Below are positions 8,357 through 40,059 of a DNA stretch of 64,000 nt, in pieces. The first letter of the stretch is position 1; the number at the start of each line of letters is the position of its first letter. This stretch comes from a virus (taxonomy: Duplodnaviria > Heunggongvirae > Uroviricota > Caudoviricetes). The notes under the pieces are model-generated. The model made no database searches and was not told the origin of the DNA. It was given only the letters and a program-made list of their open reading frames with translations. The stretch is taken from the IMG/VR virus record IMGVR_UViG_2541047850_000005, positions 3,554 to 67,553 of that record, one strand, 5' to 3'. The translations under genes and the position numbers were made by a program.

Positions 8357-8513
8357 AGTAGGCATTACTTCTTTGTAGTGAAAAGGGGCTTGATAGTAAC
8401 AAAATGGCCTTATGTCTGCCATGTGATAACAGCATTTCTCATAAATGATTAAATGCCGTAGCTGGAGTACACTACAAGGCGACAATTGCGCAAATTAAAA
8501 TAAAGGAGACGGG

Positions 8514-9614
8514 ATGAGCGAGTCCAAATCGCCGGATGCCCTGAGAGCAATGGTAGCCGGTACGCTGGCTAATTTTCAGCACCCAACCCTGAAACACAAC
8601 CTGACTACGCTTAAAGCGTTACACCATGTTGCGTTGATGGATGACACACTGCATGTCGAACTAATCATGCCTTTCGTGTGGAATAAGCCTTTTGAAGACC
8701 TGAAAGAGCAATGTAGTGGTGATCTGCTCCGTATCACTGGCGCAAAGGCTATCGACTGGAAGCTGTCGTACAACATTGCCACGCTTAAGCGCGTCAAAAA
8801 CCAACCAGGCATTAATGGCGTTAAGAACATTATCGCCGTCAGCTCAGGCAAGGGCGGCGTTGGTAAATCCTCCACGGCGGTAAACCTGGCACTGGCGTTG
8901 GCTGCTGAAGGTGCGAAAGTTGGTATTTTGGATGCCGATATCTACGGGCCATCAATTCCAACCATGCTTGGCGCGGAAAACCAACGTCCAACCTCACCGG
9001 ACGGTACTCACATGGCACCGATTATGTCTCATGGACTGGCAACCAATTCAATTGGTTATCTGGTAACTGACGACAATGCGATGGTGTGGCGTGGTCCGAT
9101 GGCGAGCAAGGCGTTAATGCAGATGTTGCAGGAAACTCTATGGCCTGATCTGGACTATCTCGTTCTCGATATGCCGCCGGGTACTGGTGATATTCAGCTG
9201 ACGCTGGCGCAGAACATTCCTGTAACTGGTGCTGTTGTGGTAACTACGCCGCAAGATATCGCGCTGATCGATGCGAAGAAAGGCATTGTGATGTTCGAAA
9301 AAGTCGAAGTGCCGGTACTGGGTATCGTCGAAAACATGAGTGTGCATATTTGCAGTAACTGCGGTCATCACGAGCCAATTTTTGGCACCGGTGGCGCACA
9401 GAAACTGGCCGAGAAATACAACACGCAGTTGTTAGGCCAAATGCCACTTCATATCTCTCTTCGTGAAGATCTGGATAACGGAACACCAACCGTTATTAGT
9501 CGTCCAGATAGCGAATTTACGGCTATTTATCGTGACCTTGCAGATCGCGTTGCTGCCCAAATGTATTGGCAAGGTGAAGTAATACCTGGCGAAATCGCAT
9601 TCCGCGCAGTGTGA
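8514..9614 (+). CDS. apbC: Fe-S cluster carrier ATPase ApbC/Mrp
   Basis: 366 aa with Walker A SSGKGGVGKSSTAVNLA and CxxC (CSNCGHH) motif; divergent from metG as in the E. coli chromosome. Confidence 0.93.
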   Translation: MSESKSPDALRAMVAGTLANFQHPTLKHNLTTLKALHHVALMDDTLHVELIMPFVWNKPFEDLKEQCSGDLLRITGAKAIDWKLSYNIATLKRVKNQPGINGVKNIIAVSSGKGGVGKSSTAVNLALALAAEGAKVGILDADIYGPSIPTMLGAENQRPTSPDGTHMAPIMSHGLATNSIGYLVTDDNAMVWRGPMASKALMQMLQETLWPDLDYLVLDMPPGTGDIQLTLAQNIPVTGAVVVTTPQDIALIDAKKGIVMFEKVEVPVLGIVENMSVHICSNCGHHEPIFGTGGAQKLAEKYNTQLLGQMPLHISLREDLDNGTPTVISRPDSEFTAIYRDLADRVAAQMYWQGEVIPGEIAFRAV

Positions 9615-9651
9615 TAAAAAGGTGGTGCAATGCACCACCTAAACAGTTCTC

Positions 9652-10041
9652 CTACATCACAGGACAATCATCAAACTCGCCACTTCTTGCGTCGTTGATA
9701 ATGTGAGTGATCACACCAAACACGGCATTGCTGCCCGTGCATCCATCATCATCCTTTGGCAATGCTTCCTTCTTACCAGTTCTTAAATCCTCCAGATGCT
9801 GACGTGGATACTTCCGGTATCTTTTTACGCGATATTCCCCATCCAGAGCACATACAAGAAGAGATCCATCAACAGGAGTGAGTGAGGAATCGACCACCAG
9901 CAATGCACCCTGCAATATTCCCTCACGATGATGGCTATCAGCTGCCCTCAAGAAGTAGGTCGCTGAAGGATGTCTAATTATCTGCTGATCAAGAGAAATA
10001 CGGCTCTCAGCATAATCCGCCGCAGGAGAGGGGTACCCCAT
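9652..10041 (-). CDS. UmuD'-like S24 peptidase domain protein (N-terminally pre-truncated)
   Basis: MGYPSPAADYAESRISLDQQIIRHPSATYF… aligns with E. coli UmuD from Gly25 onward ([29 protein letters not shown]); Ser (DSH) and Lys (RVKR) of the catalytic dyad retained; in-frame stop 3 codons upstream of the ATG. Confidence 0.7.
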   Translation of the reverse strand: MGYPSPAADYAESRISLDQQIIRHPSATYFLRAADSHHREGILQGALLVVDSSLTPVDGSLLVCALDGEYRVKRYRKYPRQHLEDLRTGKKEALPKDDDGCTGSNAVFGVITHIINDARSGEFDDCPVM

Positions 10042-10059
10042 AGCGTTTTACCTCAAAAA

Positions 10060-10079
10060 TACTGTTTATCTGTACAGTA
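10060..10079 (-). promoter_or_regulatory. LexA (SOS) box
   Basis: TACTGTTTATCTGTACAGTA = CTGT-N8-ACAG, 19-38 bp upstream of the UmuD'-like start. Confidence 0.65.
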
Positions 10080-10198
10080 TACATTAAAGAAGCACCTTTG
10101 GTGCATTAGAGAAATGCAAAACGATAATAGAGGCTAAATCGAGGTAGAAAACACATTGTTTAAGGCCACTAATTGTGGCCTTAATGGAGAGGGGATGC

Positions 10199-10762
10199 TT
10201 ATTGGCTATGGCTAAAAATCAAATTAGACACTTCATGTGGTTGTAGCTCGTCAAGATCCGGTGCCACAAAACCTTTTCCGAAAGACTTCACAAGTGATTC
10301 ACCAGCCGCATCATTGTCACCTATTACACGAAAGTCATACGGCAGCATTGCCAGTTGACGACGTAATCCTGCTGAGAAAGTCGAACCTAACAGCGCCCAC
10401 GAATTTCCGCCCGCGTTGTGCACTGCTGCACTTTTAAAAATCGACTCAGTTATCCATATCGGTCCATCTTTTAAAGGAAGATAGGTTCCCCATAGTAGCT
10501 GTCTGCCGTGCGCTCGTGTGAAATACCGGGCCATCTTCGGATTGCTGTGCTGCTTAGGAGCGCCTGGTCTGTATGTCTGATACCCGGCCAACATCCCATC
10601 AAACCTGTATAGAGGGAATGTAACAACTCCTTCGCTTTCATCGATCCACTGTCTATATGGGTGTATATCATGGCGGTAGTTACGAGTCAGCAAATGAGCT
10701 TCCAGCTTTCCAAATTTGGTCATAACTTCGCATCCCTCATAACACTTCCCATTTATCACCAT
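10199..10762 (-). CDS. Toprim-domain protein (primase-like), hypothetical
   Basis: WITESIF (conserved Glu) and VIGDNDAAG (DxD) resemble the DnaG-type Toprim fold; true start may be the internal MTKFGK. Confidence 0.4.
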   Translation of the reverse strand: MVINGKCYEGCEVMTKFGKLEAHLLTRNYRHDIHPYRQWIDESEGVVTFPLYRFDGMLAGYQTYRPGAPKQHSNPKMARYFTRAHGRQLLWGTYLPLKDGPIWITESIFKSAAVHNAGGNSWALLGSTFSAGLRRQLAMLPYDFRVIGDNDAAGESLVKSFGKGFVAPDLDELQPHEVSNLIFSHSQ

Positions 10763-11591
10763 ATTTCTCCATAGCTCTTAGCCAGTAAACATGGCCACTA
10801 GGCATAGTGATGTGAGGCTCGCCAAACTCTTCTCCATGCACATCAAAGATGTCCCCAACAGAGAATTGGGGGATTTCTGTGCCGTTTTCACCTATATGCG
10901 TAATTCGTATACGTTTCGGTTGAGATTCGCCCCCTTTGAGCGAGTTGTTCACGGCTCTTGCAATCTTCTCCCGCAATTGCTGCGTTCCGTGATACGAAAC
11001 CGCAATATCCCGCAACTCGTTCACCAGTTCTCGAATTTGGTGATCTTTAAGCTCATTATTTGGGTGATGGGCAACAACTCTGGTTAATTCACCCTTGTCT
11101 TTTGCTCTTACGTATGCAGCTCTTGTGCATTCGACCCATGTATTACCGCCTACATTAACTTCGTAGATTAGGCTGGACTTATCTGTTAATTCGGCACAAA
11201 TACGGGCCGTGGTCTGACAACTAGAGCATTCGCAGTGATCACGGAAACCGTGATCTACTGGCTTCGGTTTCACATCATCAACTTTTTCTACCCTATTGGA
11301 ATTTAAATACTTCGAAGCCTTGCTATGCCAATCGCTGGTTTTAGGATCTTGTCCATCCATCAAACGCCAGGCTTCAGCGATTAACTCATAACTAGTGACT
11401 GTAGCTTCCTGCGCATCACCAATAAGTCGTGTAATCTCTCTTTCAAGCCGACCGCCTAATTCCGTTTTAGTGCAATGTTCTGACCAATCGCCAGCCTCAA
11501 GAAGCGCGAGAATGTTTAAAATATCGTCCAATAGAACGGTAGTATTTTCGACTTCCTTCTGAAGCTCTCCGGCTGCTGATTTATGCGTCAT
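10737..11591 (-). CDS. hypothetical protein with Cys/His cluster (HCECSSCQ)
   Basis: ORF track, 284 aa; overlaps the downstream Toprim ORF by 26 nt, suggesting coupling. Confidence 0.4.
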   Translation of the reverse strand: MTHKSAAGELQKEVENTTVLLDDILNILALLEAGDWSEHCTKTELGGRLEREITRLIGDAQEATVTSYELIAEAWRLMDGQDPKTSDWHSKASKYLNSNRVEKVDDVKPKPVDHGFRDHCECSSCQTTARICAELTDKSSLIYEVNVGGNTWVECTRAAYVRAKDKGELTRVVAHHPNNELKDHQIRELVNELRDIAVSYHGTQQLREKIARAVNNSLKGGESQPKRIRITHIGENGTEIPQFSVGDIFDVHGEEFGEPHITMPSGHVYWLRAMEKYGDKWEVL

Positions 11592-13882: not shown

Positions 13883-14413
13883 TCACTCTCCTTTGATGCG
13901 AATGCCAGCGGCGCGGGAATCATTCCATCGCTTTACTTCTTCACGAATTACGTCAATGCATTCTTTCGAATCCATTAGGTAATCTTCATCAAAAAGACGT
14001 TCCTGTTCGTTTTCTATCGCAACAATGATTGCTTCAACTAACTTTTGTGCCTGAGAATCACTTTCTAACTCTGCTATGCGCTTACTTCCATCCGAGATAA
14101 CGCCCTCGTAATACTCACGCTGCTCGTTGAGTTTTGATTTTGCCAACTCCAGTTGTTTTGTTAGTTCCGCAATACGGCAAACATCGTTGATACGCGTTTC
14201 CTCTAATGCGTTGATCTCATCCAGTAGTGCCAGCACGGTTTCTGGTCCGGCCAGAAATTTGAAGGCGTTGAGGGCATCAATATCAACACCGCTATCTTTA
14301 AGTTCCTGTTCACTTAACAAGTCATCATCAGCTGGCAACATTAACAGGCGTTCCATTGCTGGAATTGCACGTTCCGCCACCTCACGCAGTGCCTGGTAAT
14401 TAATTTCGCTCAC
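13883..14413 (-). CDS. hypothetical protein (coiled-coil-like, 176 aa)
   Basis: ORF track. Confidence 0.45.
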
Positions 14414-14654
14414 TGGCTGCCTCCTGCTTTTCTGCCTTCAACACCATGCGAGAACCATCATCCAGCTCCCACACTATCTCACCACCTTCAGCCATGACCA
14501 GTTGCCACACCAATTGAGCAGCCTCATTGGTAACATCACGACCTGGATCATTGCCAACGCGCATACGTCCACCTTCAACATCGCGCATTTTTGCCAGCAT
14601 GATAGTTTTTGATAGCGGTGAAAAACCAAGCTGTAGTCGTGCTGAATTACTCAC
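14400..14654 (-). CDS. hypothetical protein (84 aa)
   Basis: ORF track. Confidence 0.35.
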   Translation of the reverse strand: MSNSARLQLGFSPLSKTIMLAKMRDVEGGRMRVGNDPGRDVTNEAAQLVWQLVMAEGGEIVWELDDGSRMVLKAEKQEAASERN

Positions 14655-15157
14655 TGGTTGCCTCCTTTGCGAAGCTGGTCGGCGAACAAACGTACACCAG
14701 ACGCTTCACTGCGTAGAAACTTAACGGCATCATCAAAACCACCTCGTTCTGCGTCGTCTGCTCCGTTGTCGAGGTTATCTGCGTACATCTCTACCCCCTG
14801 CGCCCGTACTTCAGCCAGAAAAGCATCGGTGGCTGGAGTCTCCGTTAATTCGCTAACCCAATTATCTCCGTGTTCCTCGGCACGCATCGCATCGAATGCT
14901 CGCTCAGATTCTTTCAGGGCTGCATTCTCCGCCGCTAATGCGTCTCTCTGCGCCCGCAACTTCTCAATTTCGGCAGCCATGTAGTAACCAACCATAGCGA
15001 AGACGGCAAAAGAGTTGTCTGCCTCATCAGGCGACACTGAGGCCATTAGCAGACCATCGTAATAATCGTGACTCCCATTGGTGATCGCCACCGCATAGGA
15101 GTCGTGGTTCTCACGCTTGTGAATGAGAACTACGGGGTTTTCGATTTTGTTACTCAT
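14651..15157 (-). CDS. hypothetical protein (168 aa)
   Basis: ORF track; conserved AAGGAAAAACAC-ATG initiation context; motif-1 copy at 15227-15248. Confidence 0.45.
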   Translation of the reverse strand: MSNKIENPVVLIHKRENHDSYAVAITNGSHDYYDGLLMASVSPDEADNSFAVFAMVGYYMAAEIEKLRAQRDALAAENAALKESERAFDAMRAEEHGDNWVSELTETPATDAFLAEVRAQGVEMYADNLDNGADDAERGGFDDAVKFLRSEASGVRLFADQLRKGGNQ

Positions 15158-15295
15158 GTGTTTTTCTCTTCTTTGCTGTTACATAAGCACTACCAAGTGC
15201 TGGTTTATTTTCACAAATAAGAAAATGTAGAAAACAATTTATTTAAGGCCACAACTTATGGCCTTTATTTATTCATGCCGAAGGATTTGTAGCGT

Positions 15296-15676
15296 CTAAT
15301 TGCCGTATAAAATGGGGTGAGGTGCTTGCCAGTAGGCTCCACCGGTCCATGTGAACCCCATGCGAATAAGAGTGTTTATTGCGGCTTTGGTAGACTCCGA
15401 TTCGACACTGGCTTTACGAAACTCTTGAACCTCTTTCGCCAACCTGTATGTAATTGTGCAGGGGACGATTGCAGCCCAGCCTTTCTCATGACTGTTAATG
15501 ACCATCTGGATGTGACCATCCAGAATAGGTTGATTAGACATGTTATTGAAAATGTCTGCCTGTTTTTGAATGTGAAGAAAAAGCCTTGCCAGCTCCATTT
15601 GCTCACTACGAGACAAGGGATTATCAAGAGGGCTTTTTGCAAAAGCGGCTATACGCTGTGCGTCAATGCCAAACAT
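15296..15676 (-). CDS. hypothetical protein (126 aa)
   Basis: ORF track. Confidence 0.4.
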   Translation of the reverse strand: MFGIDAQRIAAFAKSPLDNPLSRSEQMELARLFLHIQKQADIFNNMSNQPILDGHIQMVINSHEKGWAAIVPCTITYRLAKEVQEFRKASVESESTKAAINTLIRMGFTWTGGAYWQAPHPILYGN

Positions 15677-16380
15677 CAGCGCACCTCACCATCTTTATGG
15701 CTGGAGTTAACTTCCGCCATTAAATGTCTGACGTAATCGACAAGAGAGCCACCTGGTGGAATCTGGCATTCCTCAACTAACTGGAAGTAGATATCCGCAG
15801 CATTACGTGTATTGCTACCCGCGCATATTCTTTCTTCCCGAAGTGCATGAAGCTCGTTGATCAAACGGTCACACTCTCCGTTACGCTGATCCACAACAGC
15901 CTCAAGTTCTGCGACGCGTTCACCTGGCGTCTTACCTTCTTCGCGTTGGATGGTAACGACGAAATCGCCAATTGCAGGGACGTTGTAATCCAGCTCAAGG
16001 TAGTTTTTGGCACCGCTGCGGACGAACTCACCCGCGAACATGGTGGCGAACATCTCAGAGGCCATTGTGCTGTTGAAAAGTGACTCCAGATCTAACGGAG
16101 TCCCGGCAGCCAGAGCCTCTTTTGCTGTATCCATTGCATCCATGAACCGATCAAACTCATTAGCGCGCTTTTCCAGGTCTTTCCATTGCTCGCTCCAACG
16201 TTTGGCAATGAAGTCTATGAATGTTTTCGCGGATTCATCAAAATCCCCCTCAAACTTAACGATGCCTTTATCAATAATGATCTGGCCTACCGCATCCTCT
16301 GCATAACCTTTCAATGTAAACTTGAAAGGAAAATCAGAATGGCCTGTGACGTTAAAATGCTCTAACTGGAGGTTGTTCAT
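15676..16380 (-). CDS. hypothetical protein (234 aa)
   Basis: ORF track; motif-2 palindrome at 16423-16443 upstream. Confidence 0.45.
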   Translation of the reverse strand: MNNLQLEHFNVTGHSDFPFKFTLKGYAEDAVGQIIIDKGIVKFEGDFDESAKTFIDFIAKRWSEQWKDLEKRANEFDRFMDAMDTAKEALAAGTPLDLESLFNSTMASEMFATMFAGEFVRSGAKNYLELDYNVPAIGDFVVTIQREEGKTPGERVAELEAVVDQRNGECDRLINELHALREERICAGSNTRNAADIYFQLVEECQIPPGGSLVDYVRHLMAEVNSSHKDGEVR

Positions 16381-16441
16381 ATGTTTTTCTCTTATCGTTT
16401 AGTTATTACATTCTTACACAAATTAAGTAAGTATTTACCTA

Positions 16442-18127
16442 TCATTTAACGCGTTTGAAAACGTATACGCTGACTGTGATCCCTGTGTCTTCAAACTCGT
16501 TGGTAAACGACTTCCCTCTGGCATAAACGTAATTATCCATCGTCATCCAGTCCAGTATTGGCGCAGTGCCCGGCAATACTGCTACAAGACGCCCGCCGAC
16601 TTTCAGATGCCCCAGCGCAGCCAGCGTGTGCTCTCTATGACGACCAAGCGAGTACGGCGGGTTCATAACGATTTTGTCGAACTGATAACCTGCGTTGTCC
16701 TCAGACCACTTTATGAAGTCGCAGCAAATCGTGTTCGTATACCCTTTTCCACGCAGGATATCAGCGAAGAGAGGTGCGATTTCTATACAGGTAACATCTT
16801 CCAGATCGGCGTTAATATAGGCCAGAAGATCCCCACGTCCGGCTTGAGGCTCCAGCAGCTTCTCACCAGGCTTCAATTCAGTGGCTCTGGCAACGTACTC
16901 AGCAATCAAGCGTGGGGTAGGGTAGAACTGGTGTGATTTTGTATCCGGTATTAAACCGGTAGCCACAATCGTATTTAGCGTATGGCCGATCTCATACTGG
17001 AACTGCCAGTGCTTTTTCTCCTGCACGCCGCCAATGAAGCTCAGTGTGCGCTCAAGCTCTTCCACCTGCGACTTCTGGAGAGCTGAATCAGAGAAGTACC
17101 ATACGCCTTTGTCTTTGCTCAATCGCCCGTCACGAAGCGCAGTGCGAACCGGCACGGAGATCGTCTTCTGGATTAACCCGAACTGCTTTGGTGCCCGTGT
17201 TTTTGGCGCAGTTCGGCATGGCGCGGGGATTGCAGCAGGCATACTGTAAGCCAGCACCTCATTCAACTTCCAGGCCACGTCAGGATGTATTTCAAAGTGA
17301 ACGTTGCCGTTCTTGAACATCTTCACGCGCATCAGATTTCCATCGACGTTCATCCAGTCACCGGTCTGGCAGTCGTTTGCCCTATACGCAGCTGATAGCA
17401 CCTCAGCAGTGCGGTTGATGGTAATAAATTCTTTGTGCGCGAAGAAATGAAGCAAGACACGCAGATCGTCGATGTAGTCCTCTTTGCGATAGTTCACGCT
17501 AACGCTGTCCCGCCAGAAATCAGAAATGCAGTCAGCGATTATCAGCCGCTCGCTGAAACCGTTTGTCTTATTTGTCTTGTGCGCAGGACTCAGCGCCTTA
17601 AACAAGCCATACACGCGCTCAGAGAGATATTTGTGCCTGTCATTCAGCAAATTAAGCATCGTGGGTATGACCGTTTCTGCTTTGAACTCCGGTACACCAA
17701 CGAACTCTTTAACCTTCATCTGATAGCCGGTTCTGTCAGTTTTGATGACTTCCTGCTTGCCCTCGATAAATTGCTCACGCCACTCGTCGCGACGGGAAGC
17801 TGGCATGATCAGCAGAACGTTAGTCATATCCGTGACCTTCCTCCAGTACTCGGCCCAAATATTCTGTTTCACCCATTCCAGATCGACGTTATCCAGCCAG
17901 ACTCGATTCAAACGTGAGCGATCTTCATCTGGTCGGTGGTTTAGTCGAAGCAGGCGATTAATCATGTTGTGGCGTTCATCGCCATAAACGAAGTCGTGTA
18001 CCTGATACATGAAGGAGATCTCTTTCTCGCACTCGGCCACAATTTCGTGGATGACGTTCATTTCCTGTCGATAGTCGATAGCAGTGTTTGAGCTGGCATC
18101 GTCCATGATGGAAAGAGCTGTATTCAT
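16442..18127 (-). CDS. N6-adenine DNA methyltransferase fused to a large N-terminal domain of unknown function
   Basis: C-terminal third has motif I-like LEPQAGRGDL and motif IV MNPPYS; about 380 N-terminal residues have no recognisable family. Confidence 0.6.
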   Translation of the reverse strand: MNTALSIMDDASSNTAIDYRQEMNVIHEIVAECEKEISFMYQVHDFVYGDERHNMINRLLRLNHRPDEDRSRLNRVWLDNVDLEWVKQNIWAEYWRKVTDMTNVLLIMPASRRDEWREQFIEGKQEVIKTDRTGYQMKVKEFVGVPEFKAETVIPTMLNLLNDRHKYLSERVYGLFKALSPAHKTNKTNGFSERLIIADCISDFWRDSVSVNYRKEDYIDDLRVLLHFFAHKEFITINRTAEVLSAAYRANDCQTGDWMNVDGNLMRVKMFKNGNVHFEIHPDVAWKLNEVLAYSMPAAIPAPCRTAPKTRAPKQFGLIQKTISVPVRTALRDGRLSKDKGVWYFSDSALQKSQVEELERTLSFIGGVQEKKHWQFQYEIGHTLNTIVATGLIPDTKSHQFYPTPRLIAEYVARATELKPGEKLLEPQAGRGDLLAYINADLEDVTCIEIAPLFADILRGKGYTNTICCDFIKWSEDNAGYQFDKIVMNPPYSLGRHREHTLAALGHLKVGGRLVAVLPGTAPILDWMTMDNYVYARGKSFTNEFEDTGITVSVYVFKRVK

Positions 18128-18230
18128 AATTGCACCATTAAGAAATGATTTGTTTAATGATGCAATTATTTCAAAAATAAAAAGGTGCTAAATAGAAATT
18201 AACAGGCAATACTTAAAATAAAGGCATTGA

Positions 18231-18905
18231 CTAATCATACTTGGATGTATTTATAACCAGGACTTTATTTGTATATAGTTTTTTTACATCCCATGTAACA
18301 TTACTTGAATACCATTCACCATTATATATTTGGTTTCCCGTTGCGCCTGTCATTGTTACGTATACAGGTCTGTCGTAAGGTGTTCGTCTATAGTTATATA
18401 CTCCAACCATTGCAGGCATTATCGCACACGGGTATCCCATATTTATGGTAAATTGAGGATTTGTAATAGTGATAATCTCTGCATCAAGGGGCATCATCTC
18501 ACCGTGATATACCATTTTACCTGCGCTATTATACATGGCAATACCATATCCTGAATGTGGTAACACCATATCAGAAAAAGCATAAACTGTTATCGTTCCG
18601 GGGTTTCCTCCAACCTGATTCAGTCTGAGAACATTATACCCATCTCTAAATTCATGAACGAACATCATATTCGCCTTATTACTGCTTTTTATAAAGAAAA
18701 AACATGATTTGTTCGACGGTATTGAAGTCTTAAAAACAGAACCTTTAGACGTGGACATTGTCCCCCTATTAATCAAATTTTGCGGTGTAAATTCTGGACT
18801 CATCCACACATTACCATTTGACTGAGTAATTGACATCCCGAACATTATTGTTATCCCCAATATGTATATATATAAGATCCAAGTCCCTTGTATAAATTTG
18901 ACCAA
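18231..18905 (-). CDS. hypothetical membrane-anchored/secreted protein in AT-rich island
   Basis: N-terminal hydrophobic segment WILYIYILGITIMFG; strongly AT-rich codons unlike neighbours. Confidence 0.4.
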   Translation of the reverse strand: MVKFIQGTWILYIYILGITIMFGMSITQSNGNVWMSPEFTPQNLINRGTMSTSKGSVFKTSIPSNKSCFFFIKSSNKANMMFVHEFRDGYNVLRLNQVGGNPGTITVYAFSDMVLPHSGYGIAMYNSAGKMVYHGEMMPLDAEIITITNPQFTINMGYPCAIMPAMVGVYNYRRTPYDRPVYVTMTGATGNQIYNGEWYSSNVTWDVKKLYTNKVLVINTSKYD

Positions 18906-19132
18906 CTTACTGTATTGCCGTTAATAGTGATAGTTGGTGTAGGTATATTTACATGGTTATCGTTATTTAAAGGCATCAATGAGCACACAGCATGTAATGA
19001 TTTGCCAGGTGGTGGATTTGGGTAAGTCTTAGAGCCTGACGTGGTTGTAAATCGATCAAGAAAAAAAATAGGAGTAAGGAAGCCGGTAACGTTAACTCCC
19101 TTATTATTGTAGATCCCTGTACCGTATGCCAT
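18851..19132 (-). CDS. hypothetical protein in AT-rich island
   Basis: ORF track, 93 aa; overlaps the next ORF in another frame, so boundaries uncertain. Confidence 0.3.
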   Translation of the reverse strand: MAYGTGIYNNKGVNVTGFLTPIFFLDRFTTTSGSKTYPNPPPGKSLHAVCSLMPLNNDNHVNIPTPTITINGNTVSWSNLYKGLGSYIYTYWG

Positions 19133-19186
19133 TTTTCATCCTTGTTTTTATCAACATAATATGGCCGATCATGCGGCCATATCAGA

Positions 19187-19756
19187 TCAATTAGAGCTTT
19201 GAAAGGCTTTGTGTGGCTGTGTTGCGAGGTTATGTCGATGGCTTAACTCACGCATCATGTCTTCAAAGCGACTCTTTGTGTCGTCGAGTTGGTCAGCCAT
19301 TGCTCCTAAAAGCTGACGAACTACCATCGGATCGTCGCTGTTTAGTGATGGCATTTTATAACCCGCCTGAGAAGACATCAGATTGAATGCAGACATCAAC
19401 ATCGTTAGAGAGGATTTAAGCCCGGCAATTTCACGATCTTTGCTGGCAATAATCGTCTCACTTTTGTTACTGTCATGAGTTCCTTGAGTCTCGCTCACCA
19501 TATCCAAAGTCGCCTGCAACTTATCAGCGCGCTCTTTTTCAGCAAGATAATGAACACCGAAATGATGTGCTAAAGCTACAACCTGAGTTGGCTCTTCAAA
19601 GGTGGACTCAAAATTAAGTGCTGTAACCACTCTCTCAAAAATGGAAACGTCTTCTATTCCTCGAAGAATGGCTAACATTTTGACCAGTTCATTAGCATCC
19701 ATTTCTTCGAATAAGGCGTTTTGTTCATCAGCTATCGCTTTGCATTTCTTGCACAT
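19187..19756 (-). CDS. hypothetical protein (189 aa)
   Basis: ORF track; motif-1 copy 19773-19797 plus AGGAAAAACAC-ATG context. Confidence 0.45.
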   Translation of the reverse strand: MCKKCKAIADEQNALFEEMDANELVKMLAILRGIEDVSIFERVVTALNFESTFEEPTQVVALAHHFGVHYLAEKERADKLQATLDMVSETQGTHDSNKSETIIASKDREIAGLKSSLTMLMSAFNLMSSQAGYKMPSLNSDDPMVVRQLLGAMADQLDDTKSRFEDMMRELSHRHNLATQPHKAFQSSN

Positions 19757-20053
19757 GTGTTTTTCCTAATGCTTAAACAAGTTGTTTTCTTATTGGCTTT
19801 ATTGTGATGTGGCATAAAAGGGGAGCAAGCTAAACGTAAAGGTGCAAACTCTCTATTTCGGTCAACGAAACACAATGGCCATTTGACCCTTGTCATTAAC
19901 ACGTTGCTTTACGGACTAGCGGATAAGCGAAGTAGATCGCCAGACCAATGAGGACGCCATCAGAAATGACAGACATCATCTTTCCCGTAAAATCCACCAA
20001 CACCGCCATCACCAGAAGAGCAATGACGGTCACAAGCCGGAATCTCTCAAGCA

Positions 20054-20479
20054 TTAGAGATAAGCATCCAGTGACAACTGAAGCGCCTGGGCGATCTTTT
20101 TCAGCGCCTGCTCTTCTGGTTCATCAATGCCGTCTTGGTCGGCAATATCAAGGCACAGACAAAGTACATCTACTGCATCATCAGTCCCGGCCACATCCGC
20201 CAGCTCACGTAAAGCCTGGGCATTAGCACGGCGCGGTGAGGCTTCGTATTGAGCGCGGATATTGGCGCTCATCTGGGCAATCTCACCAGCAAAAGGAGAA
20301 AATGCAGGCAGAGCTGCAATTGTTTTCTCAAGAATGGAAATTTCTTTTGCATCGCATGTACCGTTGGCATAGGAGATCATGTACCCACCCCACACGGTGG
20401 CTTCAACCGCATCACGGTTCTCCATTTTTTTGACTTCGATAACTGCTTTACGAGTTTTCTTTTTGAAGAAACCTAACAT
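20054..20479 (-). CDS. hypothetical protein, possibly TerB-like
   Basis: Acidic C-terminal segment …DQDGIDEPEEQALKKIAQAL… resembles TerB-family proteins (weak); motif-1 copy at 20500-20520. Confidence 0.35.
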   Translation of the reverse strand: MLGFFKKKTRKAVIEVKKMENRDAVEATVWGGYMISYANGTCDAKEISILEKTIAALPAFSPFAGEIAQMSANIRAQYEASPRRANAQALRELADVAGTDDAVDVLCLCLDIADQDGIDEPEEQALKKIAQALQLSLDAYL

Positions 20480-20572
20480 GTGTTTTCCTTTTGTTATTTG
20501 TCAAAACAAGTTGTTTTCTAGTTAAATAAATTGCTTACGCAAAGGCGGTCAATGCATATGCACTAACAACCG

Positions 20573-20761
20573 TCAGAAATAACCAAGTACCGAACCGACT
20601 GGAAAAATAAAAATCCCAACTACACGAGCCAAGGTCATGCCAGCCTGAAACTGGAGATCGCCAGAGCAAACAAGTTTTATAATGTTCGATACCCAACCGG
20701 CGGCCATGAGGGCAAGAATTGCCAGCCAAATTTTTCCAAAGTGATTTGAAAACCAGTTCAT
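20573..20761 (-). CDS. small hydrophobic membrane protein (62 aa)
   Basis: Two predicted TM stretches (IWLAILALMAAGWV, VVGIFIFPVGSVLGYF). Confidence 0.35.
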   Translation of the reverse strand: MNWFSNHFGKIWLAILALMAAGWVSNIIKLVCSGDLQFQAGMTLARVVGIFIFPVGSVLGYF

Positions 20762-21009
20762 ACAACCGCCTTAGTCACAGCATGATCCTGAGTAACTGGA
20801 TGAACTTGAGGTATCGCATCCACCGTCATCCCATCCAGAGTGACAGGACGCTCTGCTGGAGTGGTGGTAATTGTCGTCGACGGAGGTGTGGTGATGGATG
20901 AATCCGGCATCAAAAGGCTCTGGCCGGCTGGAACGGCTACCGTCGCCAGTGAAACTATAATGAGAACGTAGGCCATTGGTTTCAGCCTCTTTCTTTGAAA
21001 ATTTTCCAT
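20758..21009 (-). CDS. small membrane/secreted Thr-Pro-rich protein (83 aa)
   Basis: Hydrophobic N-terminus MAYVLIIVSLATVAV followed by TTPPSTTITTTP. Confidence 0.35.
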   Translation of the reverse strand: MENFQRKRLKPMAYVLIIVSLATVAVPAGQSLLMPDSSITTPPSTTITTTPAERPVTLDGMTVDAIPQVHPVTQDHAVTKAVV

Positions 21010-21286
21010 TCGAACTGTCCTTGTTGTTTTTCTCCTTCACTAAAGGCCGTGCATTTTTCGCTTGGTGTGAAGAACCAGAGGTAACAATCGCCCCCACGTT
21101 CGCAACAACTGACGCTTGCTTATCTAAACGTTCATTCAGCAACCGAACGGTAGTCTCAAGTTCATCAAGACGTGACAGAACACGACCGCTAAATAATTCG
21201 GCCAAAATTTGACGTAGTGAACGAGGACGTTTAGTTGCAGAAGTGAAATAGGTTTGACGTGCCATGTGGACTCCATCCAGTGTCAT
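20771..21286 (-). CDS. hypothetical protein (only N-terminal part credible)
   Basis: ORF track; C-terminal half is low-complexity and overlaps 20758..21009 in another frame; motif-2 variant at 21384-21405 upstream. Confidence 0.3.
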   Translation of the reverse strand: MTLDGVHMARQTYFTSATKRPRSLRQILAELFSGRVLSRLDELETTVRLLNERLDKQASVVANVGAIVTSGSSHQAKNARPLVKEKNNKDSSNGKFSKKEAETNGLRSHYSFTGDGSRSSRPEPFDAGFIHHHTSVDDNYHHSSRASCHSGWDDGGCDTSSSSSYSGSCCD

Positions 21287-21410
21287 AAAGAGTTGCGGCT
21301 GGCGATTGCCAGCCGCCTTTCTCGTTCCATCCTGGAACTGTGTCTTACCGACACATTGTCATCCTGACGCCGATAAGATACATGATTTATAATGATAGGT
21401 AAACACTTAC

Positions 21411-22005
21411 TTACTGCTTGTTATAAACAAAACCAATATCTTTCTTGTGAGGCATATCTGCTGCGGAAAAAGCTGCGATCTTCGCGAGTCGATCACATAT
21501 TTCATTTTCACGATGCCCGGCGTGACCTTTAACCCACTTCCAGCGAACATTATGTCGACTTGCGGCCTCATCCAGACGCTTCCACAGATCAACATTCTTT
21601 ACCGGTTTTTTGTCAGAAGTCATCCATCCATTGCGTTTCCACCATTTCATCCACTGTGTCATGCCGTTTTTCAGATACTGGCTATCAGAGTGCAAAATAA
21701 CGTTGCATGGATATTTCAAACGCTCCAGCCCGATAAGTGCCCCCATCATCTCCATGCGGTTATTGGTGGTGCTATGAAAACCATCTGAGAACTCGCGTTC
21801 CTCACCACGATACTGAAGAACGATACCGTAACCGCCCGGGCCACCCGGATTTTTAAGGCAAGAGCCATCACTGAAGATTTTCACGGTTTTAAGCTGGGGA
21901 TTGAACTCTACGACAGGCGTTGTGGGATTGGTACGGGGAGAATTTTTGTTTTTGGCTTTTTTGCGAGTTTTTGCTTGCGATCGGGCTGGTGTCTTCGTCG
22001 TCATA
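21411..22005 (-). CDS. rnhA: ribonuclease HI-like
   Basis: [22 protein letters not shown]…[10 protein letters not shown]…[18 protein letters not shown] are the RNase H DEDD-type motifs; start set at MTTKTPA after an AGGAG SD. Confidence 0.8.
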
Positions 22006-22588
22006 TAAACTCCTGAATCAAGCGCCGCGCCGATTTTTTTTTCCTCGCGCGTGCGCACACGCGTGCGTGTTAATAATTATTAAAATAAACAAATTACTTC
22101 CCAGAACAGGTTTTTATAAACCTGAACTGAACGAACGAAGTGAGTGAAGTTCACCTCGAACGAAGTGAGAGGTTGTCTTTTCAGGTAATACTCTCCCAGG
22201 GAGGTGAGTATAAAATTCCTCACCAACCTGGTCGTTTCATAACCTGAAAAGTTATGGTCTAAGTCTACTGCCAGCTTAGACTTGGGAAGTTATGGATGAC
22301 AGCACCCCAGAACCGAGATCTTCCCACACTTTATGAAGGGGAGTACTGGATTCAACCTCTCGAAACACCCCAGACTCGACAATCATAAAGTGACCCTTGT
22401 CTCTGCTCACTTTGGTTCCCCCTTCCCCGACACCTAAACGGCACCGGTTCTACGCTGGTAGTGAGCTTTTTAAACCTGACGCCAGTGACGCTTACCCCCA
22501 CCCATCAGGTCGAGCCTCCAGTCTACGACTGGAAACAATCAGATCTTAGCACTTACAATTCACTTTATGAATAGTTTGTACTTATCTA
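22006..22588 (-). other. ORF-free, structure-rich segment (candidate non-coding RNA)
   Basis: About 580 bp with no ORF of 60 aa or more on either strand in a densely packed region; several hairpins and tandem GAACGAAGTGAG repeats. Confidence 0.3.
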
Positions 22589-22843
22589 TCATTGTGATTG
22601 ATTATTTTCTCGACCATGTAGTTGAACATTCAAGGCAAACACCTCATTGATCAACTCACCTAAAAGCTGTTCAACAAGTTCGCGATGCTCCCCAAGATGC
22701 AAGCACTTAATTGCCCATTCGTACAAGTTGAAAGCCTGCTCTCGATCTTTCATCATTTCACGAGCCTTAGCCAGAAAATCGCTCTCTACGAGCGCAACGA
22801 CATTAGTCGGGTATGACATGTTGGTTTCCTTAAAGTGGTTCAT
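22589..22843 (-). CDS. hypothetical small protein (84 aa)
   Basis: ORF track. Confidence 0.4.
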   Translation of the reverse strand: MNHFKETNMSYPTNVVALVESDFLAKAREMMKDREQAFNLYEWAIKCLHLGEHRELVEQLLGELINEVFALNVQLHGRENNQSQ

Positions 22844-22927
22844 AAAATCGATTTTAAAGCGTCTGGGAAGGGGGTCTAGTGGATTCTGTAGTGATGTTCA
22901 GGTCTGGGAGTCTCTGATACAAAACAG

Positions 22928-22980
22928 CCTGCTTCCGTATATTAATAATTAATATGTAGTTATTTATATACAGAAGCAGG
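22928..22980 (-). terminator. long inverted repeat / putative terminator
   Basis: CCTGCTTCCGTATAT … ATATACAGAAGCAGG (15-bp arms, 1 mismatch, 23-nt AT loop), 24 nt after the Dam-like gene stop. Confidence 0.4.
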
Positions 22981-23003
22981 TTAATTACACTCGCCAGAAC
23001 AAA

Positions 23004-23597
23004 CTAAGCAGCCTTCTTTGATGCTCTTTTTTTTCTGACCACATTCGCAGGATCATACCCTCCCAGACTTTTCATGACGTCCAAAGGGATCTTGCTTATA
23101 GAGTGCCCAGCGTCCTGACAGAATCCTCGAAAAACAACGAGCATACTGCCACCGGGGTTGATGTTTACTTCTACCTGACCCAAATTGACGTCAGGCTCGA
23201 CAAACGCTACGCGGCCACCAGACAGAATAATCGTCTCATTCGCATACTCTGTTGCACGCTCATACCACTTTGTATCGAGGGATTGAGGAATTAGCATCAC
23301 TGTTGTAACTCCGCGAGCCTGCTCACGTATAGCCGCATCAATCCAGGGGGAGATTTTGGAGTAGGGTGGATTGAGGAAGGCAATTGTACCTGGCTGCCCC
23401 CATTCAGATTTCAAAGCATCGCGCTCAACGCCTATGAAAATAGGCAGCTTTGCATTGTCCTTGTTGCAGGCAACGTCAACATCAAATGTCACTCCAAGAT
23501 AACGTTGAATGGCAGAAAACAGCCAATCAGGTGTTCTCCAGAGATCACGAAGAGAGTTGTCGCGCTTTCGCTGTTTGATTTTTTCGGCTGCAATCAT
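23004..23597 (-). CDS. phage-type Dam-like N6-adenine DNA methyltransferase
   Basis: 197 aa with NPPYS motif (FLNPPYSKISPW) and the short single-domain architecture of phage N6A methyltransferases. Confidence 0.7.
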   Translation of the reverse strand: MIAAEKIKQRKRDNSLRDLWRTPDWLFSAIQRYLGVTFDVDVACNKDNAKLPIFIGVERDALKSEWGQPGTIAFLNPPYSKISPWIDAAIREQARGVTTVMLIPQSLDTKWYERATEYANETIILSGGRVAFVEPDVNLGQVEVNINPGGSMLVVFRGFCQDAGHSISKIPLDVMKSLGGYDPANVVRKKRASKKAA

Positions 23598-23608
23598 CTT
23601 TTTTCTCG

Positions 23609-23628
23609 ATAGGTAAGTGATTACCTAT
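23609..23628. promoter_or_regulatory. motif-2 palindromic operator (ATAGGTAAG-N-CTTACCTAT family)
   Basis: ATAGGTAAGTGATTACCTAT, perfect 8-4-8 palindrome 12 bp upstream of the Dam-like start. Confidence 0.5.
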
Positions 23629-23780
23629 TTTTGCATTTGATTTCATGTATGGCAATCAAATAAAACGCGCCAGAAATGCGAACAAGAAGCTCTCTGGCGC
23701 GTTTTTGTGGTGCTGGGTATGGGTTATGCTTACCCAGCACTATAAAGCTCTCTATGGGCTTTATTTTCAGTAGGGGAACG

Positions 23781-24590
23781 TCATCCAATAGTGTACTCCG
23801 CGACAAACTTCTTAACGATCGGTGATTCTTCGTTCAATGTTAGATTTCCACCGTCTCTAACAGCAATTCCTGTAGCTGGAAATACAGCCATCATTTGCCC
23901 AGCCTGAGTTGACGCAGTGTTAAGCGGATACGGTTTTTCTGGATTGCTCATTAAAGCAATCTTAATACTATTACTTGTAGCCTTCTTTTCTGTGAGAAGG
24001 TGTCTCATGGAAATTACCGTGTAAACACTAATATCTGGACCTCCGCTAAACCAATTAAGAAGATTTAATATCTTATCCTTCGCTTTGACAGGCGCGTTTT
24101 CGTAAGCGTCTAAGAAAATATCTTTTTCTAAGCCTGCTTTATTGAAAAACGAATCATCTTTATCACTTAAAGTAAAACGAGGACCTCTTGCAACACGAGC
24201 TTTTTTATTTGTATTGCTATCATTTGACTGTTGAACTTTTAATTCATCATTAACCTCAACACACTCTTCAACCTCAATAAATCCCAATTGTTCTGGCTCG
24301 TTTTCGGCAGCTTCAACACTTTCAGCGTTAATTACGTTTATAGGCTCATGCGCTAACTCCAACTCATTTAAAGCAGAGCTGAAATCACCTGCTTTTTCTT
24401 CATTGAACAGTTCTTCGGCAACATCATCAGAACTCATGGCTACGCCAGCATCGAGGCCGAGAAGCAGATCGTCAATATCATCAGTATTTTCAACCTGTGC
24501 AGCTTTTTTTACTGGTTCATCAAGTGATTGCAACATGGCTGTCAGCTCATCCAGATCATCATTTGTCATTACATTTTCAACCGAACTCAT
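23781..24590 (-). CDS. hypothetical protein with acidic N-terminal half (269 aa)
   Basis: ORF track. Confidence 0.45.
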   Translation of the reverse strand: MSSVENVMTNDDLDELTAMLQSLDEPVKKAAQVENTDDIDDLLLGLDAGVAMSSDDVAEELFNEEKAGDFSSALNELELAHEPINVINAESVEAAENEPEQLGFIEVEECVEVNDELKVQQSNDSNTNKKARVARGPRFTLSDKDDSFFNKAGLEKDIFLDAYENAPVKAKDKILNLLNWFSGGPDISVYTVISMRHLLTEKKATSNSIKIALMSNPEKPYPLNTASTQAGQMMAVFPATGIAVRDGGNLTLNEESPIVKKFVAEYTIG

Positions 24591-24750
24591 GTAAGTCTCC
24601 TTCTGTTTAGTTGCATTTGCGTTTCGATGGCTACATTTTGACTAAACCTATCAGGCGGAAAAGTATTAAATACAGGCAGGAAATGATTGAAAGGCGACTG
24701 TTCTTTAAAAGAAAGCCTGCTTCAAACTCTCTTTAAAGCAGGCTTTTGTT

Positions 24751-25308
24751 TTACACAATTTCAGAGGGTAATTTAAAAAATCCGTATTTATTACGTGCCT
24801 TAAAGAAGCATTGCATCATTAAGTTTGTGTCATATAAGGCACTATGTGCTTTGGCATGATCGTATATAAAGCCAAGAGAGAAGGCCAATTCTTCAAGGCG
24901 AGGACGTTTACCGTCTTCTGTGGCCCACAATCCCGATAACATAGTATCTATAACGGGAACGTCTGGCAGTCTTACTCCATACCCTGAAAACTCGTGTCGA
25001 ATAAATGGTATATCAAACGCTTCGCCGTTATGAGCAATCCACGCACTACATGCCCCCATATAAGCGCCAATTTCGCTGGCATGATTTGACAACAAAGGTT
25101 CAGCTGCGAGCTGTTCTAATGAAATGCCATGAACGGCTTGAGCTTTCGGATCTATGTTTCTGCGAGGGTTAAAACGCATCTCCAGACTATCAATATGTCT
25201 CTGTGTCTCCAGTTCATAGCGGGTAATTGCGATTTCAATAATTTTATGACCAGCAAGGAAATCCAGTCCCGTAGACTCGATATCGATGCCTGCAACAATC
25301 GTTGTCAT
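24751..25308 (-). CDS. DEDDh 3'-5' exonuclease (DnaQ/epsilon-like)
   Basis: Exo I GIDIESTGL, Exo II AHNGEAFDIPF, Exo III HSALYDT. Confidence 0.75.
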   Translation of the reverse strand: MTTIVAGIDIESTGLDFLAGHKIIEIAITRYELETQRHIDSLEMRFNPRRNIDPKAQAVHGISLEQLAAEPLLSNHASEIGAYMGACSAWIAHNGEAFDIPFIRHEFSGYGVRLPDVPVIDTMLSGLWATEDGKRPRLEELAFSLGFIYDHAKAHSALYDTNLMMQCFFKARNKYGFFKLPSEIV

Positions 25309-25317
25309 CAGAACTCC

Positions 25318-25737
25318 TTACAACTTCTTAGCGCCCTTAAGTAGTGCGCTACGTACAAATTGAGCCGCTTTTTTCAAAGTTTCTTGACTGGTTTCACAGA
25401 CAATCGGATTTTTCCACTTACCTGACGCAGTGTTGAGAATATTGATTTGGTTGCTATCCAGACAAACAGAGATATAAAGCACCGTGCCACCAGCCAGCAT
25501 CAAATGCATAGGAAACAGAGGCTTTTTACTGTCTTCACTGAACTGAGACATGGCGATGTTAATGGCTTCACCTACTTGTGCGCCAACAAGCCCCTGCGCA
25601 GTTTCGAATATGGCACGAATAGCCAGACGAGCCTCTCGATCGCTCATAAGCGACCGGGAATGTTCGTCCGCTACACGAATCAAAGCCTCTGTTGTTTTCC
25701 GATCCAGTTCATCTTCAAGCAACATTTCACTAAACAT
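25318..25737 (-). CDS. hypothetical protein (139 aa)
   Basis: ORF track. Confidence 0.4.
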   Translation of the reverse strand: MFSEMLLEDELDRKTTEALIRVADEHSRSLMSDREARLAIRAIFETAQGLVGAQVGEAINIAMSQFSEDSKKPLFPMHLMLAGGTVLYISVCLDSNQINILNTASGKWKNPIVCETSQETLKKAAQFVRSALLKGAKKL

Positions 25738-25798
25738 TTTTTATCCTTAACCCATTTTGAGAGTTTTATTGTCGCAATGTCGAAGAGGCGAACAATTT

Positions 25799-26443
25799 CT
25801 AATGAACGGTCACTCGGCCACAGAACCGGTTTTCTATCTTTTCTACAGCGTTATCTAGCACTCTCATCACTGATCTGGCTCTTGCTTCAACCGTGCGATA
25901 TCGGTTGGAAACGACGAAGGTTTGCAGATCCCCCCTTTGCGGATGCAGGTGAATTTTTGTCAGTTCCCCGCACATCAACGCATCAATACGAGCGACATAC
26001 AGACGGTCTAATGATGCTCGTTGTGATCGCAAGTAATCTCGCTCTGAGAGAGCGACTCCCGGGCGTAGGCCAGCAATGGCGTTAAAGTTTGAAATAGCAG
26101 TTTTGTGGCAAAACTTTTCGATATCGAGGGCTAACTCAATACATCGATCTTCATTGGTATGGCCGACCAAATCCAACGTGTAGGCCATAACATCAGCAGG
26201 TGTGCGATCGATAACAAAGCCTTCAACACCACGCGTAAGTAGCTCTATATGCTTTGCTATTTCCATTTGAATCTGAAGCCGCTCATATAGAGGCATAGAC
26301 TCACCTACTCGAACACCGAGTCGGCTCATCAAACTTCCGACACCAGCATCCACGTAAGGGATTCCGTAATGTTTGTCGATATATTTTGCCAGGGTTGTTT
26401 TCCCACTGCCCTGAGCACCAGTGATCCCAATCCGGTAATCCAT
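25799..26443 (-). CDS. P-loop NTPase, putative (deoxy)nucleotide kinase
   Basis: Walker A GITGAQGSGKTTLAKYI and a DRT motif; sits in the thyA-folA precursor cluster. Confidence 0.5.
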   Translation of the reverse strand: MDYRIGITGAQGSGKTTLAKYIDKHYGIPYVDAGVGSLMSRLGVRVGESMPLYERLQIQMEIAKHIELLTRGVEGFVIDRTPADVMAYTLDLVGHTNEDRCIELALDIEKFCHKTAISNFNAIAGLRPGVALSERDYLRSQRASLDRLYVARIDALMCGELTKIHLHPQRGDLQTFVVSNRYRTVEARARSVMRVLDNAVEKIENRFCGRVTVH

Positions 26444-28434: not shown

Positions 28435-28507
28435 AAAACCTCACGAAGATAAGTAATCAATTATTTATCACGTGAGTTTACATTCATTGATAACACAAGA
28501 CCAGATA

Positions 28508-28535
28508 GATAAAAAATGGTGGCCATAGGCCACCA
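28508..28535 (-). terminator. rho-independent terminator-like hairpin
   Basis: TGGTGGCCTATGGCCACCA followed by TTTTTT on the minus strand, downstream of the 28602 stop. Confidence 0.5.
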
Positions 28536-28601
28536 AAAAGAATAGTCGCTCCAGAGTTTTATACGCAAATCAAATATACATTAGTAGATAATCACCTACA
28601 A

Positions 28602-29471: not shown

Positions 29472-29548
29472 GCTAGTTTTGTTCCTTCTTAATTCTTGTG
29501 ATCCATTGTGGCCCAGCGTTGCCAGGCCACATAATGCTTTGTATCGGT

Positions 29549-38721: not shown

Positions 38722-38943
38722 TTATTCACATATCCACAGGATAGATCCTAATAAAGAGATCCATAGATAGATCCTTGTATAGATCAAATAAGATCCCCGA
38801 TCGCTGTAAGCCGCGCCACGACTGGTCTGAAGCCATGTTCATGTATGCTGTCAGCGGTAATTGATAGTCTGTCAGCGGTTCACCGTATGCTGCCAACTGT
38901 TTTTGGTATTCTGTCAGCGGCAAATCAAGTATGCTGTCAGCGG
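38722..38943 (+). promoter_or_regulatory. plasmid-type replication origin (DnaA boxes + GATC cluster + iterons)
   Basis: Tandem DnaA boxes TTATTCACA/TATCCACA (38722-38738), six GATC sites within 38744-38803, then 4-5 copies of iteron TATGCTGTCAGCGGT (38844-38943) ending 22 bp before the rep start. Confidence 0.7.
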
Positions 38944-38964
38944 TTGAATGACAAAGGTGTCCAC

Positions 38965-40059
38965 ATGTCCACAAAAAATAAAAAAGGTAAAAATAACAAA
39001 GAAGTAGAAGATAACATCGACAACTTTGAAGAAGGTTCCCTTGAATTGTACACAGGGGAACTTGTCCCTAATAGCAACAATACAGTCCAACCAATTGCGT
39101 TGATGCGACTGGGGTTGTTCGTCCCCACGCTTAAGGGAACAAAATACAGTAAACGTAACAAGCCAAATGAGATCGATGCTTCAAAGGAGCTTGTCCAGCT
39201 CGAAGTAGCCCGTTCTGAAGGCTATTCCGATATCAAGATAACCGGTCCTCGTCTCGACATGGATCATGATTTCAAAACGTGGGTGGGCGTTGTGCGTTCG
39301 CTGGCAGAATACGGCGAACCTAATGGTCGTGTCGAGTTAAGCATCACGAAATTTGCGAAGTTTTGTGGCTATCCATCGTCACAGATCCGCAAAACACTCC
39401 GCGACCGGCTTACAAACAGTCTTTTGAAGATCATGCGTACAACTCTGTCTTTCCAGAGAACGTATGAAGAAAAGAACGTCGACGGCTCTAACAAGATCTC
39501 GCTTCTGATGGTGCACCTCATCAATAGCGTGGACTACAACGAGCAGAAAGATACGGTGGTGTTCTATGCAGAACCGAAGCTGGCCGAACTATATCGCTTT
39601 GACCATAAGGTTCTTTTGCAGTTAAAGGTTATCAATAAGCTACCACGCAAAGAAACAGCACAGGCTCTGTACACCTTCATCGAAAGTCTTCCAACCAAGC
39701 CTGCGCCGGTATCGCTTGCTCGATTGCGTGCGCGACTCAATTTGAGTAGCAGGAATGTCAGCTCGCAGAATCAGACTATACGTAACGGCTTAAAAGCTCT
39801 CCAAGATTTGGGCTATCTCGAATACAGCGAGATTAAGCGTGGGCGGTCGATCTATATCCAGATTCACAGCCGCAATCCAAAACTCAAAGTCGCACCGCCA
39901 AAACCTGAAGACATCGAACCCAAAAAACCAGATGAGAAAGCTGGGGAAATTGATGCCAAACAGAACATTATCAACAAGATAACCGAACTTTCGCAGAATT
40001 TGACGCCTGAAAATATCAAGATGATTGAGATCCTTTCCAATAGTCTCAAACTGCTTTGA
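38965..40059 (+). CDS. repA: iteron-binding replication initiator (RepA-like)
   Basis: Only large plus-strand gene in the element, flanked by iterons; start set at MSTKNKKGK because the ORF-track start at 38845 lies inside the iterons. Confidence 0.7.
   Translation: MSTKNKKGKNNKEVEDNIDNFEEGSLELYTGELVPNSNNTVQPIALMRLGLFVPTLKGTKYSKRNKPNEIDASKELVQLEVARSEGYSDIKITGPRLDMDHDFKTWVGVVRSLAEYGEPNGRVELSITKFAKFCGYPSSQIRKTLRDRLTNSLLKIMRTTLSFQRTYEEKNVDGSNKISLLMVHLINSVDYNEQKDTVVFYAEPKLAELYRFDHKVLLQLKVINKLPRKETAQALYTFIESLPTKPAPVSLARLRARLNLSSRNVSSQNQTIRNGLKALQDLGYLEYSEIKRGRSIYIQIHSRNPKLKVAPPKPEDIEPKKPDEKAGEIDAKQNIINKITELSQNLTPENIKMIEILSNSLKLL

Follow-up and report, generated by a model that had tools for sequence, protein, structure and literature searches.

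The large methyltransferase gene at 16442..18127 of the window (the whole stretch of DNA that was analyzed, 64,000 nucleotides in length) encodes a 561-aa protein built of three parts: a DUF4942 module, a variable bridge and a minimal gamma-class N6-adenine methyltransferase (MTase) core. With a probability of roughly 55%, it is read here as an orphan gamma-class DNA m6A MTase that is expressed early and serves the self-protection of the element; DUF4942 would be its conserved module for engaging DNA or countering defence. The second, smaller MTase gene of the window is an ordinary phage T1-type Dam, which is already known in kind. The two genes and their parts were located as follows.

16442..18127, minus strand: gene of the DUF4942 and gamma-class N6-adenine MTase protein, 561 aa, ATG start, stop codon at 16442..16444
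17213..18070, minus strand: DUF4942 module, aa ~20-305, helical at aa 20-122, followed by a conserved alpha/beta core at aa ~146-305
17243..17710, minus strand: Pfam DUF4942 match, aa 140-295
17555..17593, minus strand: most conserved DUF4942 loop LSPAHKTNKTNGF, aa 179-191, pattern LSxxHxTNxxxGF derived from alignments
17279..17308, minus strand: conserved DUF4942 motif GNVHFEIHPD, aa 274-283, pattern GxxHxExHPD derived from alignments
16934..17197, minus strand: variable bridge, aa 311-398, a small alpha/beta domain directly preceding the MTase core
16445..16933, minus strand: minimal gamma-class amino-MTase core, aa 399-561, motif order X, I, IV
16913..16927, minus strand: motif X, FYPTP, aa 401-405, with the 'TP' cap as in EcoKI/TaqI-like adenine MTases
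16829..16855, minus strand: motif I, LEPQAGRGD, aa 425-433, SAM-binding loop
16652..16663, minus strand: motif IV, NPPY, aa 489-492, catalytic motif in the context 'MNPPYSLG'
23004..23597, minus strand: gene of the phage T1-type Dam family N6-adenine MTase, 197 aa, ATG start
23361..23372, minus strand: NPPY of the small protein, aa 76-79, context 'LNPPYSKI'

Both open reading frames were found exactly where a preliminary description of this DNA had placed them (561 and 197 aa). Both carry NPPY, and both have full-length database proteins with 99% identity. For the 561-aa protein these are named 'DUF4942 domain-containing protein', with 1384 member sequences in one cluster. The orthologue on plasmid p09EL50, WP_014962270.1 (RefSeq), bears the same name. 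The protein is matched end to end by PHROG 6263 'DNA methyltransferase' (E 2.8e-299) and, in PADLOC, by the Type II MTase models and mad2.

For the N-terminal region, the preliminary description gave the right size of about 380 aa, as the MTase signature begins near aa 399. Its statement that the region matches nothing recognizable has to be corrected, since Pfam DUF4942 (PF13708) covers aa 140-295 with 73.9 bits against a gathering threshold of 25 bits (E 1.7e-20). A known annotated domain in this place had been named there as speaking against its own reading, and the Pfam search returned literally that. DUF4942 is a catalogued (Pfam, PHROG, RefSeq) yet unstudied module.

The mean pairwise identity of the four parts was determined for 149 representatives. 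The DUF4942 core (residues 146-305) showed a value of 48.0%, followed by the MTase core (residues 399-561) with 43.7% and the helical part (residues 20-122) with 30.1%, while the bridge (residues 311-398) was the lowest of the four with 26.4%. The most conserved stretches of the N-terminal part are aa 179-191, DDLR (aa 220-223) and aa 274-283. The residues L179, S180, T185, N186, D221, G274, H277, P282 and N289 are invariant in fused as well as stand-alone DUF4942 proteins.

Modelled alone, the N-terminal part reached a pLDDT of 87.3 and a pTM of 0.80 (81-sequence alignment) and is therefore not a loose extension; in the full-length model the loop at aa 182-185 has a low pLDDT. No solved structural relative of the DUF4942 fold was found, and the search of aa 1-398 gave no match to a nuclease family or fold. 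A reading of DUF4942 as a DNA mimic was rejected, since the module is not strongly acidic (pI of 6.1 for the module and 8.7 for its core).

The MTase core follows the gamma-class motif order from X (F/Y-x-T-P) over I ((D/E)PxxGxG) to IV (NPP[YF]) in alignments of 30 sequences and of 150 representatives, the latter sharing ~32% identity with the 561-aa query. Residues conserved to at least 85-95% are Q400-F-Y-P-T-P405, L-E-P-x-A-G-x-G, E449, D470-F471 and N489-P-P-Y/F. Among the 150 representatives, E426, P427, A429, G430 and G432 of the SAM-binding loop and N489, P490 and P491 of the catalytic motif are conserved to at least 95%. Pfam N6_Mtase gave a sub-threshold match only (aa 400-441). The core has the class I Rossmann MTase fold and can be superposed on solved members, and a 'TP' cap that precedes a helix marks the EcoKI/TaqI group (Iyer et al., 2017, PMC5512222).

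Compared to M.TaqI and the HsdM-like enzymes of the EcoKI type, the core is only ~160 aa in length and has neither a TaqI_C-type target recognition domain (TRD) nor an HsdS partner. The protein ends ~70 residues past NPPY and therefore lacks a TaqI-type C-terminal recognition domain. Attached to the N-terminal side is DUF4942, which is structurally unlike any solved TRD. In the searchable literature no methylation motif, activity or experimental data were reported for any family member, DUF4942 is named in passing only, and functional results on methylases of SSU5 or pHCM2 did not turn up either.

The PHROG 6263 match and the occurrence of the same core inside giant phage proteins fit the DarB-like antirestriction MTases (PMC5512222). 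With the MTases of DarB-like polyvalent proteins the large protein shares an EcoKI/TaqI-like adenine core with TP cap that is carried by phages and plasmids, and those MTase domains are thought to serve antirestriction (Iyer et al., 2017, PMC5512222). Segments resembling the core were found in giant PHROG families of 1259-3925 aa, whereas the bridge is shared only in phrog_9133 (1259 aa), which matches aa 328-560 of the large protein (E 3.1e-50). In this family the bridge travels together with the MTase core. In contrast to the DarB-like MTase-helicase dyad, with its C-terminal SF2/SNF2 helicase and N-terminal LPD36, the 561-aa protein is small and has no helicase domain. P1 itself showed no similarity to it by tblastn.

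The same minimal core is present in a 3066-aa protein of Vibrio phage D53 (CDS 23363-32563, OZ195752.1; 37% identity over aa 399-522 of the large protein). This protein, which looks like a polyvalent protein, is common to many related Vibrio phages.

Like M.EcoGIX and M.BceJIV (PMC7736820), the large protein is an orphan adenine MTase of a mobile element for which a protective role on DNA entry is proposed. These two are leading-region MTases specific for single strands (Fomenkov et al., 2020, PMC7736820), and M.EcoGIX-type MTases occur in the same plasmid leading regions as stand-alone DUF4942 proteins. A kinship of the large protein with M.EcoGIX was rejected, since that 227-aa enzyme belongs to a different permuted class with DPPY before the SAM loop and shows no meaningful sequence similarity.

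The fusion turned out to be no peculiarity of this DNA but a fixed and widespread architecture. An exhaustive profile search returned 15019 proteins at E<=0.001 and 761 clusters (50% identity) at E<=1e-30, and the best 150 of the 761 are all full-length matches of ~500-700 aa. What makes the domain of interest belongs to a very large family rather than to this particular locus. The DUF4942 module alone gave matches in over 5000 plasmid records, of which 3901 are conjugative.

Three architectures were distinguished. The form found in the window, DUF4942 followed by the MTase (~560 aa), occurs in SSU5-like phage-plasmids, IncHI2-type plasmids, phages and early regions of lambdoid prophages. A stand-alone DUF4942 of 282-295 aa is found on IncK/I and IncL/M (pOXA-48-type) plasmids. 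The reverse order, MTase followed by DUF4942 (~530 aa), gave 6763 hits at E<=1e-5. Representatives of the last two forms, in coordinates of the respective stretch examined, are:

6722-7570, IncK2/Z plasmid pO111-CRL-115: stand-alone DUF4942 without MTase domain, 282-286 aa
5737-6597, IncL/M pOXA-48-like plasmid: stand-alone DUF4942 without MTase domain, 282-286 aa
2248-3825, Fusobacterium phage phiFN37: MTase-DUF4942 gene

The stand-alone proteins align to aa 46-301 of the large protein and end at the '..AIP' that closes the module; a single cluster contains 9732 member sequences. Their genes are located in plasmid leading regions, together with genes for ArdA-like antirestriction, ssb and DUF1380. 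The IncK gene, whose product has the accession WP_001077046.1, lies two genes from the mobA/relaxase genes. An MTase of the IncK leading region was considered as the missing partner of the stand-alone DUF4942 and was rejected, as it is not homologous to the MTase core described here. The 12.6-kb pOXA-48-type stretch that was analyzed has no annotated MTase.

In the reverse-order protein of phiFN37 (WPH65337.1) the same MTase core was found at aa 6-126 (35% identity, E 1e-18) and DUF4942 at aa 275-472 (Pfam E 7e-31). A reverse-order member in an SPbeta-like prophage adjoins an LPD29 protein, and an SNF2 helicase is encoded within a few kb; another in a conjugative element is located beside a further orphan MTase and T4SS genes.

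Among the phages with the DUF4942-MTase order, Aeromonas phage 2_D05 carries a tandem duplication of the block downstream of this gene (NinG and five small ORFs; 6334-8565 and 9176-11230). A truncated 'DNA methyltransferase' fragment at 8848-9090 precedes the second copy of the block.

The preliminary description had considered a target-recognition function for the N-terminal domain. This is partly supported by the reverse-order family, where DUF4942 occupies the place of the TaqI-type TRD, and it is weakened by a core whose conservation exceeds that of the catalytic domain (48% vs. 44%) and by the occurrence of the module alone on conjugative plasmids. For a classical specificity-determining TRD, neither the better conservation than in the catalytic core nor the presence without an MTase in leading regions would be typical. 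From this poor fit, it is proposed to be a conserved DNA-engaging module. Because its core is so conserved, a short or relaxed shared specificity or the recognition of a DNA structure would be expected rather than many specificities. Thousands of proteins combine the two modules, in one order or the other, which argues for a direct cooperation between them.

In the reading preferred here, the catalytic part of the large protein is an EcoKI/TaqI-like core reduced to the FYPTP cap, the SAM loop and NPPY, without a recognition domain of its own. DNA contact would be supplied by DUF4942, probably with a contribution of the variable bridge (aa 311-398). DUF4942 would act as a structure-specific or low-sequence-specificity DNA-engaging module, and the bridge may modulate the specificity. 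The enzyme would methylate the DNA of the element during replication or on arrival in a new host, and the restriction enzymes of that host would meet modified DNA. Counted for this reading are, among other points, the catalytic motifs, which are intact and conserved in the 150 representatives at ~32% identity.

The main rival to this reading, which is considered rather unlikely, regards DUF4942 as an autonomous anti-defence or establishment effector directed at a host restriction complex, SSB or the replisome. It would merely be joined to an adenine MTase that lacks specificity, as is seen in polyvalent proteins, and the MTase would find DNA independently of it. The high abundance of the stand-alone form (282-295 aa, 9732 sequences in one cluster) and its leading-region neighbours, with ArdA-like antirestriction, ssb and DUF1380 genes and a relaxase gene close by, point in this direction. 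The higher conservation of the DUF4942 core relative to the MTase core would be expected for a module with a fixed partner, and this MTase core is also found as part of giant phage proteins with several domains and next to an LPD29 protein. On the other hand, the MTase core has no other DNA-binding candidate except the 88-aa bridge, the existence of both fusion orders, each in a large family, speaks for direct cooperation over co-delivery, and there is no known protein target for such an effector.

A more general proposal, possible but put forward only tentatively, is that DUF4942 represents a new fold and a general module which engages mobile-element DNA on entry or during replication, or neutralizes a defence of the host. 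On its own, it would be among the first leading-region genes of IncI/K and IncL/M plasmids to reach a recipient, while in the fusions of either order, spread over thousands of phages, phage-plasmids and ICEs, it would form a TRD-less, broad protective methylase.

With no solved structural relative, a conservation above that of the catalytic core and three architectures, DUF4942 is a worthwhile target for further study. A binding target, if shown, would explain how a minimal MTase core that lacks a recognition domain gets to its DNA, and such work might reveal a new establishment or anti-defence activity. In Enterobacteriaceae, resistance genes are to a large extent carried by SSU5-like phage-plasmids and by plasmids of the IncI, IncL/M and IncHI2 groups. 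DUF4942 is extremely common on these elements, and the way in which they evade restriction affects their host range.

Two minor alternatives concern the type of enzyme. That the large protein methylates RNA (rRNA/tRNA m6A or m2G) or protein in a host-takeover function is improbable. Least probable of all is a single-chain restriction-modification enzyme of the Type IIG/IIL kind with an N-terminal nuclease, for which the annotation of a homologue in Pseudomonas phage Jeremy as 'RE endonuclease' and the invariant or near-invariant D221, D262, E279, H277 and H281 of the N-terminal core could be cited. MmeI-like enzymes have an N-terminal PD-(D/E)xK nuclease domain and a C-terminal TRD on either side of the gamma MTase; in the large protein, aa 1-398 gave no nuclease match and the chain ends ~70 aa after NPPY.

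A restriction endonuclease next to the MTase genes was absent according to the preliminary description, and none was detected here. Among the neighbours at ~14.6-25.3 kb of the window, no restriction-endonuclease family was detected in Pfam or PADLOC, where several small neighbours lacked any family match; the only matches among the tested neighbours were TerB, RNase H and a DnaQ-like exonuclease. At 12 other loci of relatives, covering both fusion orders, no restriction-endonuclease family was found either. Other orphan MTases (N6_N4_Mtase, Dam, DNA_methylase) frequently adjoin the genes of these relatives, no partner gene is conserved across the contexts, and every context examined is a mobile element.

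Both genes of the window are thus, as judged from the sequence, orphan adenine MTases without a detectable restriction partner. An anti-restriction or epigenetic role is the natural reading of two such N6-adenine-type enzymes on a mobile element. Of the overall interpretation given in the preliminary description, the two partnerless MTases on a mobile element and the Dam-like call stand, while the view of the N-terminal region as unannotated had to be given up.

The small protein was matched in full length by Pfam PF05869 (129.3 bits against a cutoff of 28.1, E 1.5e-37), by TIGR01712 'phage_N6A_met' (112.5 bits against a cutoff of 97.05, E 1.4e-32) and by phrog_111 (E 2.7e-64). The PF05869 and TIGR01712 matches support its earlier designation as Dam-like. 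Its orthologue on p09EL50 is WP_014962277.1 (RefSeq). With scores above the curated cutoffs, the NPPY motif, a phage-derived element as carrier and no restriction endonuclease, it resembles the Dam of T1 and VT2-Sa, and nothing notable differs. The characterized relatives T1 Dam and M.EcoVT2Dam are GATC-specific m6A MTases, and by analogy the small Dam is expected to methylate GATC. The Dam-like gene offers nothing new, and the locus as such holds a gene already catalogued, in plasmids of a family that has been sampled well.

A GATC-rich origin, as named in the preliminary description, does exist. Six GATC sites were found within ~60 bp (38740-38802), and a Rep3-type initiator gene at 38845..40059 (Pfam Rep3_N, E 5e-9) lies immediately downstream of them, and the GATC cluster is followed by the iteron-like repeats TGTCAGCGG at ~38850-38920. 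Over the whole window GATC is neither enriched nor avoided (263 observed, 244 expected). The P1 oriR is a Dam-sensitive origin, and the layout of the GATC cluster and the Rep3 gene resembles such a plasmid origin. The T1-type Dam could also act on this cluster beside the Rep3-type origin. For a control of the GATC-rich origin, only the Dam-like enzyme or the host Dam could come into question, not the DUF4942 enzyme.

Positions 14000-24000 of the window are matched by 1079 plasmid records (megablast). The top matches are ~108-kb non-mobilizable E. coli and Shigella sonnei plasmids with 98.9% identity, including p09EL50 of E. coli O104:H4 (NC_018651), and a protein of Escherichia phage PhiR41_1 shows 99.6% identity to the 561-aa protein. 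From the matches to p09EL50-like plasmids and to PhiR41_1, the window is assigned on sequence similarity to an SSU5/pHCM2-type phage-plasmid. In the RefSeq annotation of p09EL50, both MTase genes belong to a single long block on one strand, made up of early genes and genes of replication and nucleotide metabolism, including those for Ea22-like, RNase HI, DnaQ-like exonuclease, DHFR, ThyA and NrdB. Promoter and terminator counts around the large MTase gene were no better than in shuffled sequence.

Directly upstream of the large MTase gene, the GC content drops to 39% at 18001-20000, compared to 47-49% on either side. An ORF inside this stretch (18231..18905) matches phrog_425 'membrane associated protein' of the moron category, and the low-GC stretch may be a moron insertion. 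The RNase HI gene at 21411-22058 of the window (Pfam RNase_H at aa 58-196) encodes a lysine-rich N-terminal extension of ~57 aa which is absent from typical RnhA; for the p09EL50 orthologue a shorter start is annotated in RefSeq (594 bp). The p09EL50 annotation also contains a full methionine-tRNA ligase gene (metG) and apbC, which correspond to ~6323-9614 of the window, a position placed by correspondence only. Going by this RefSeq annotation, the window would carry both genes, an unusual cargo for a phage-plasmid.
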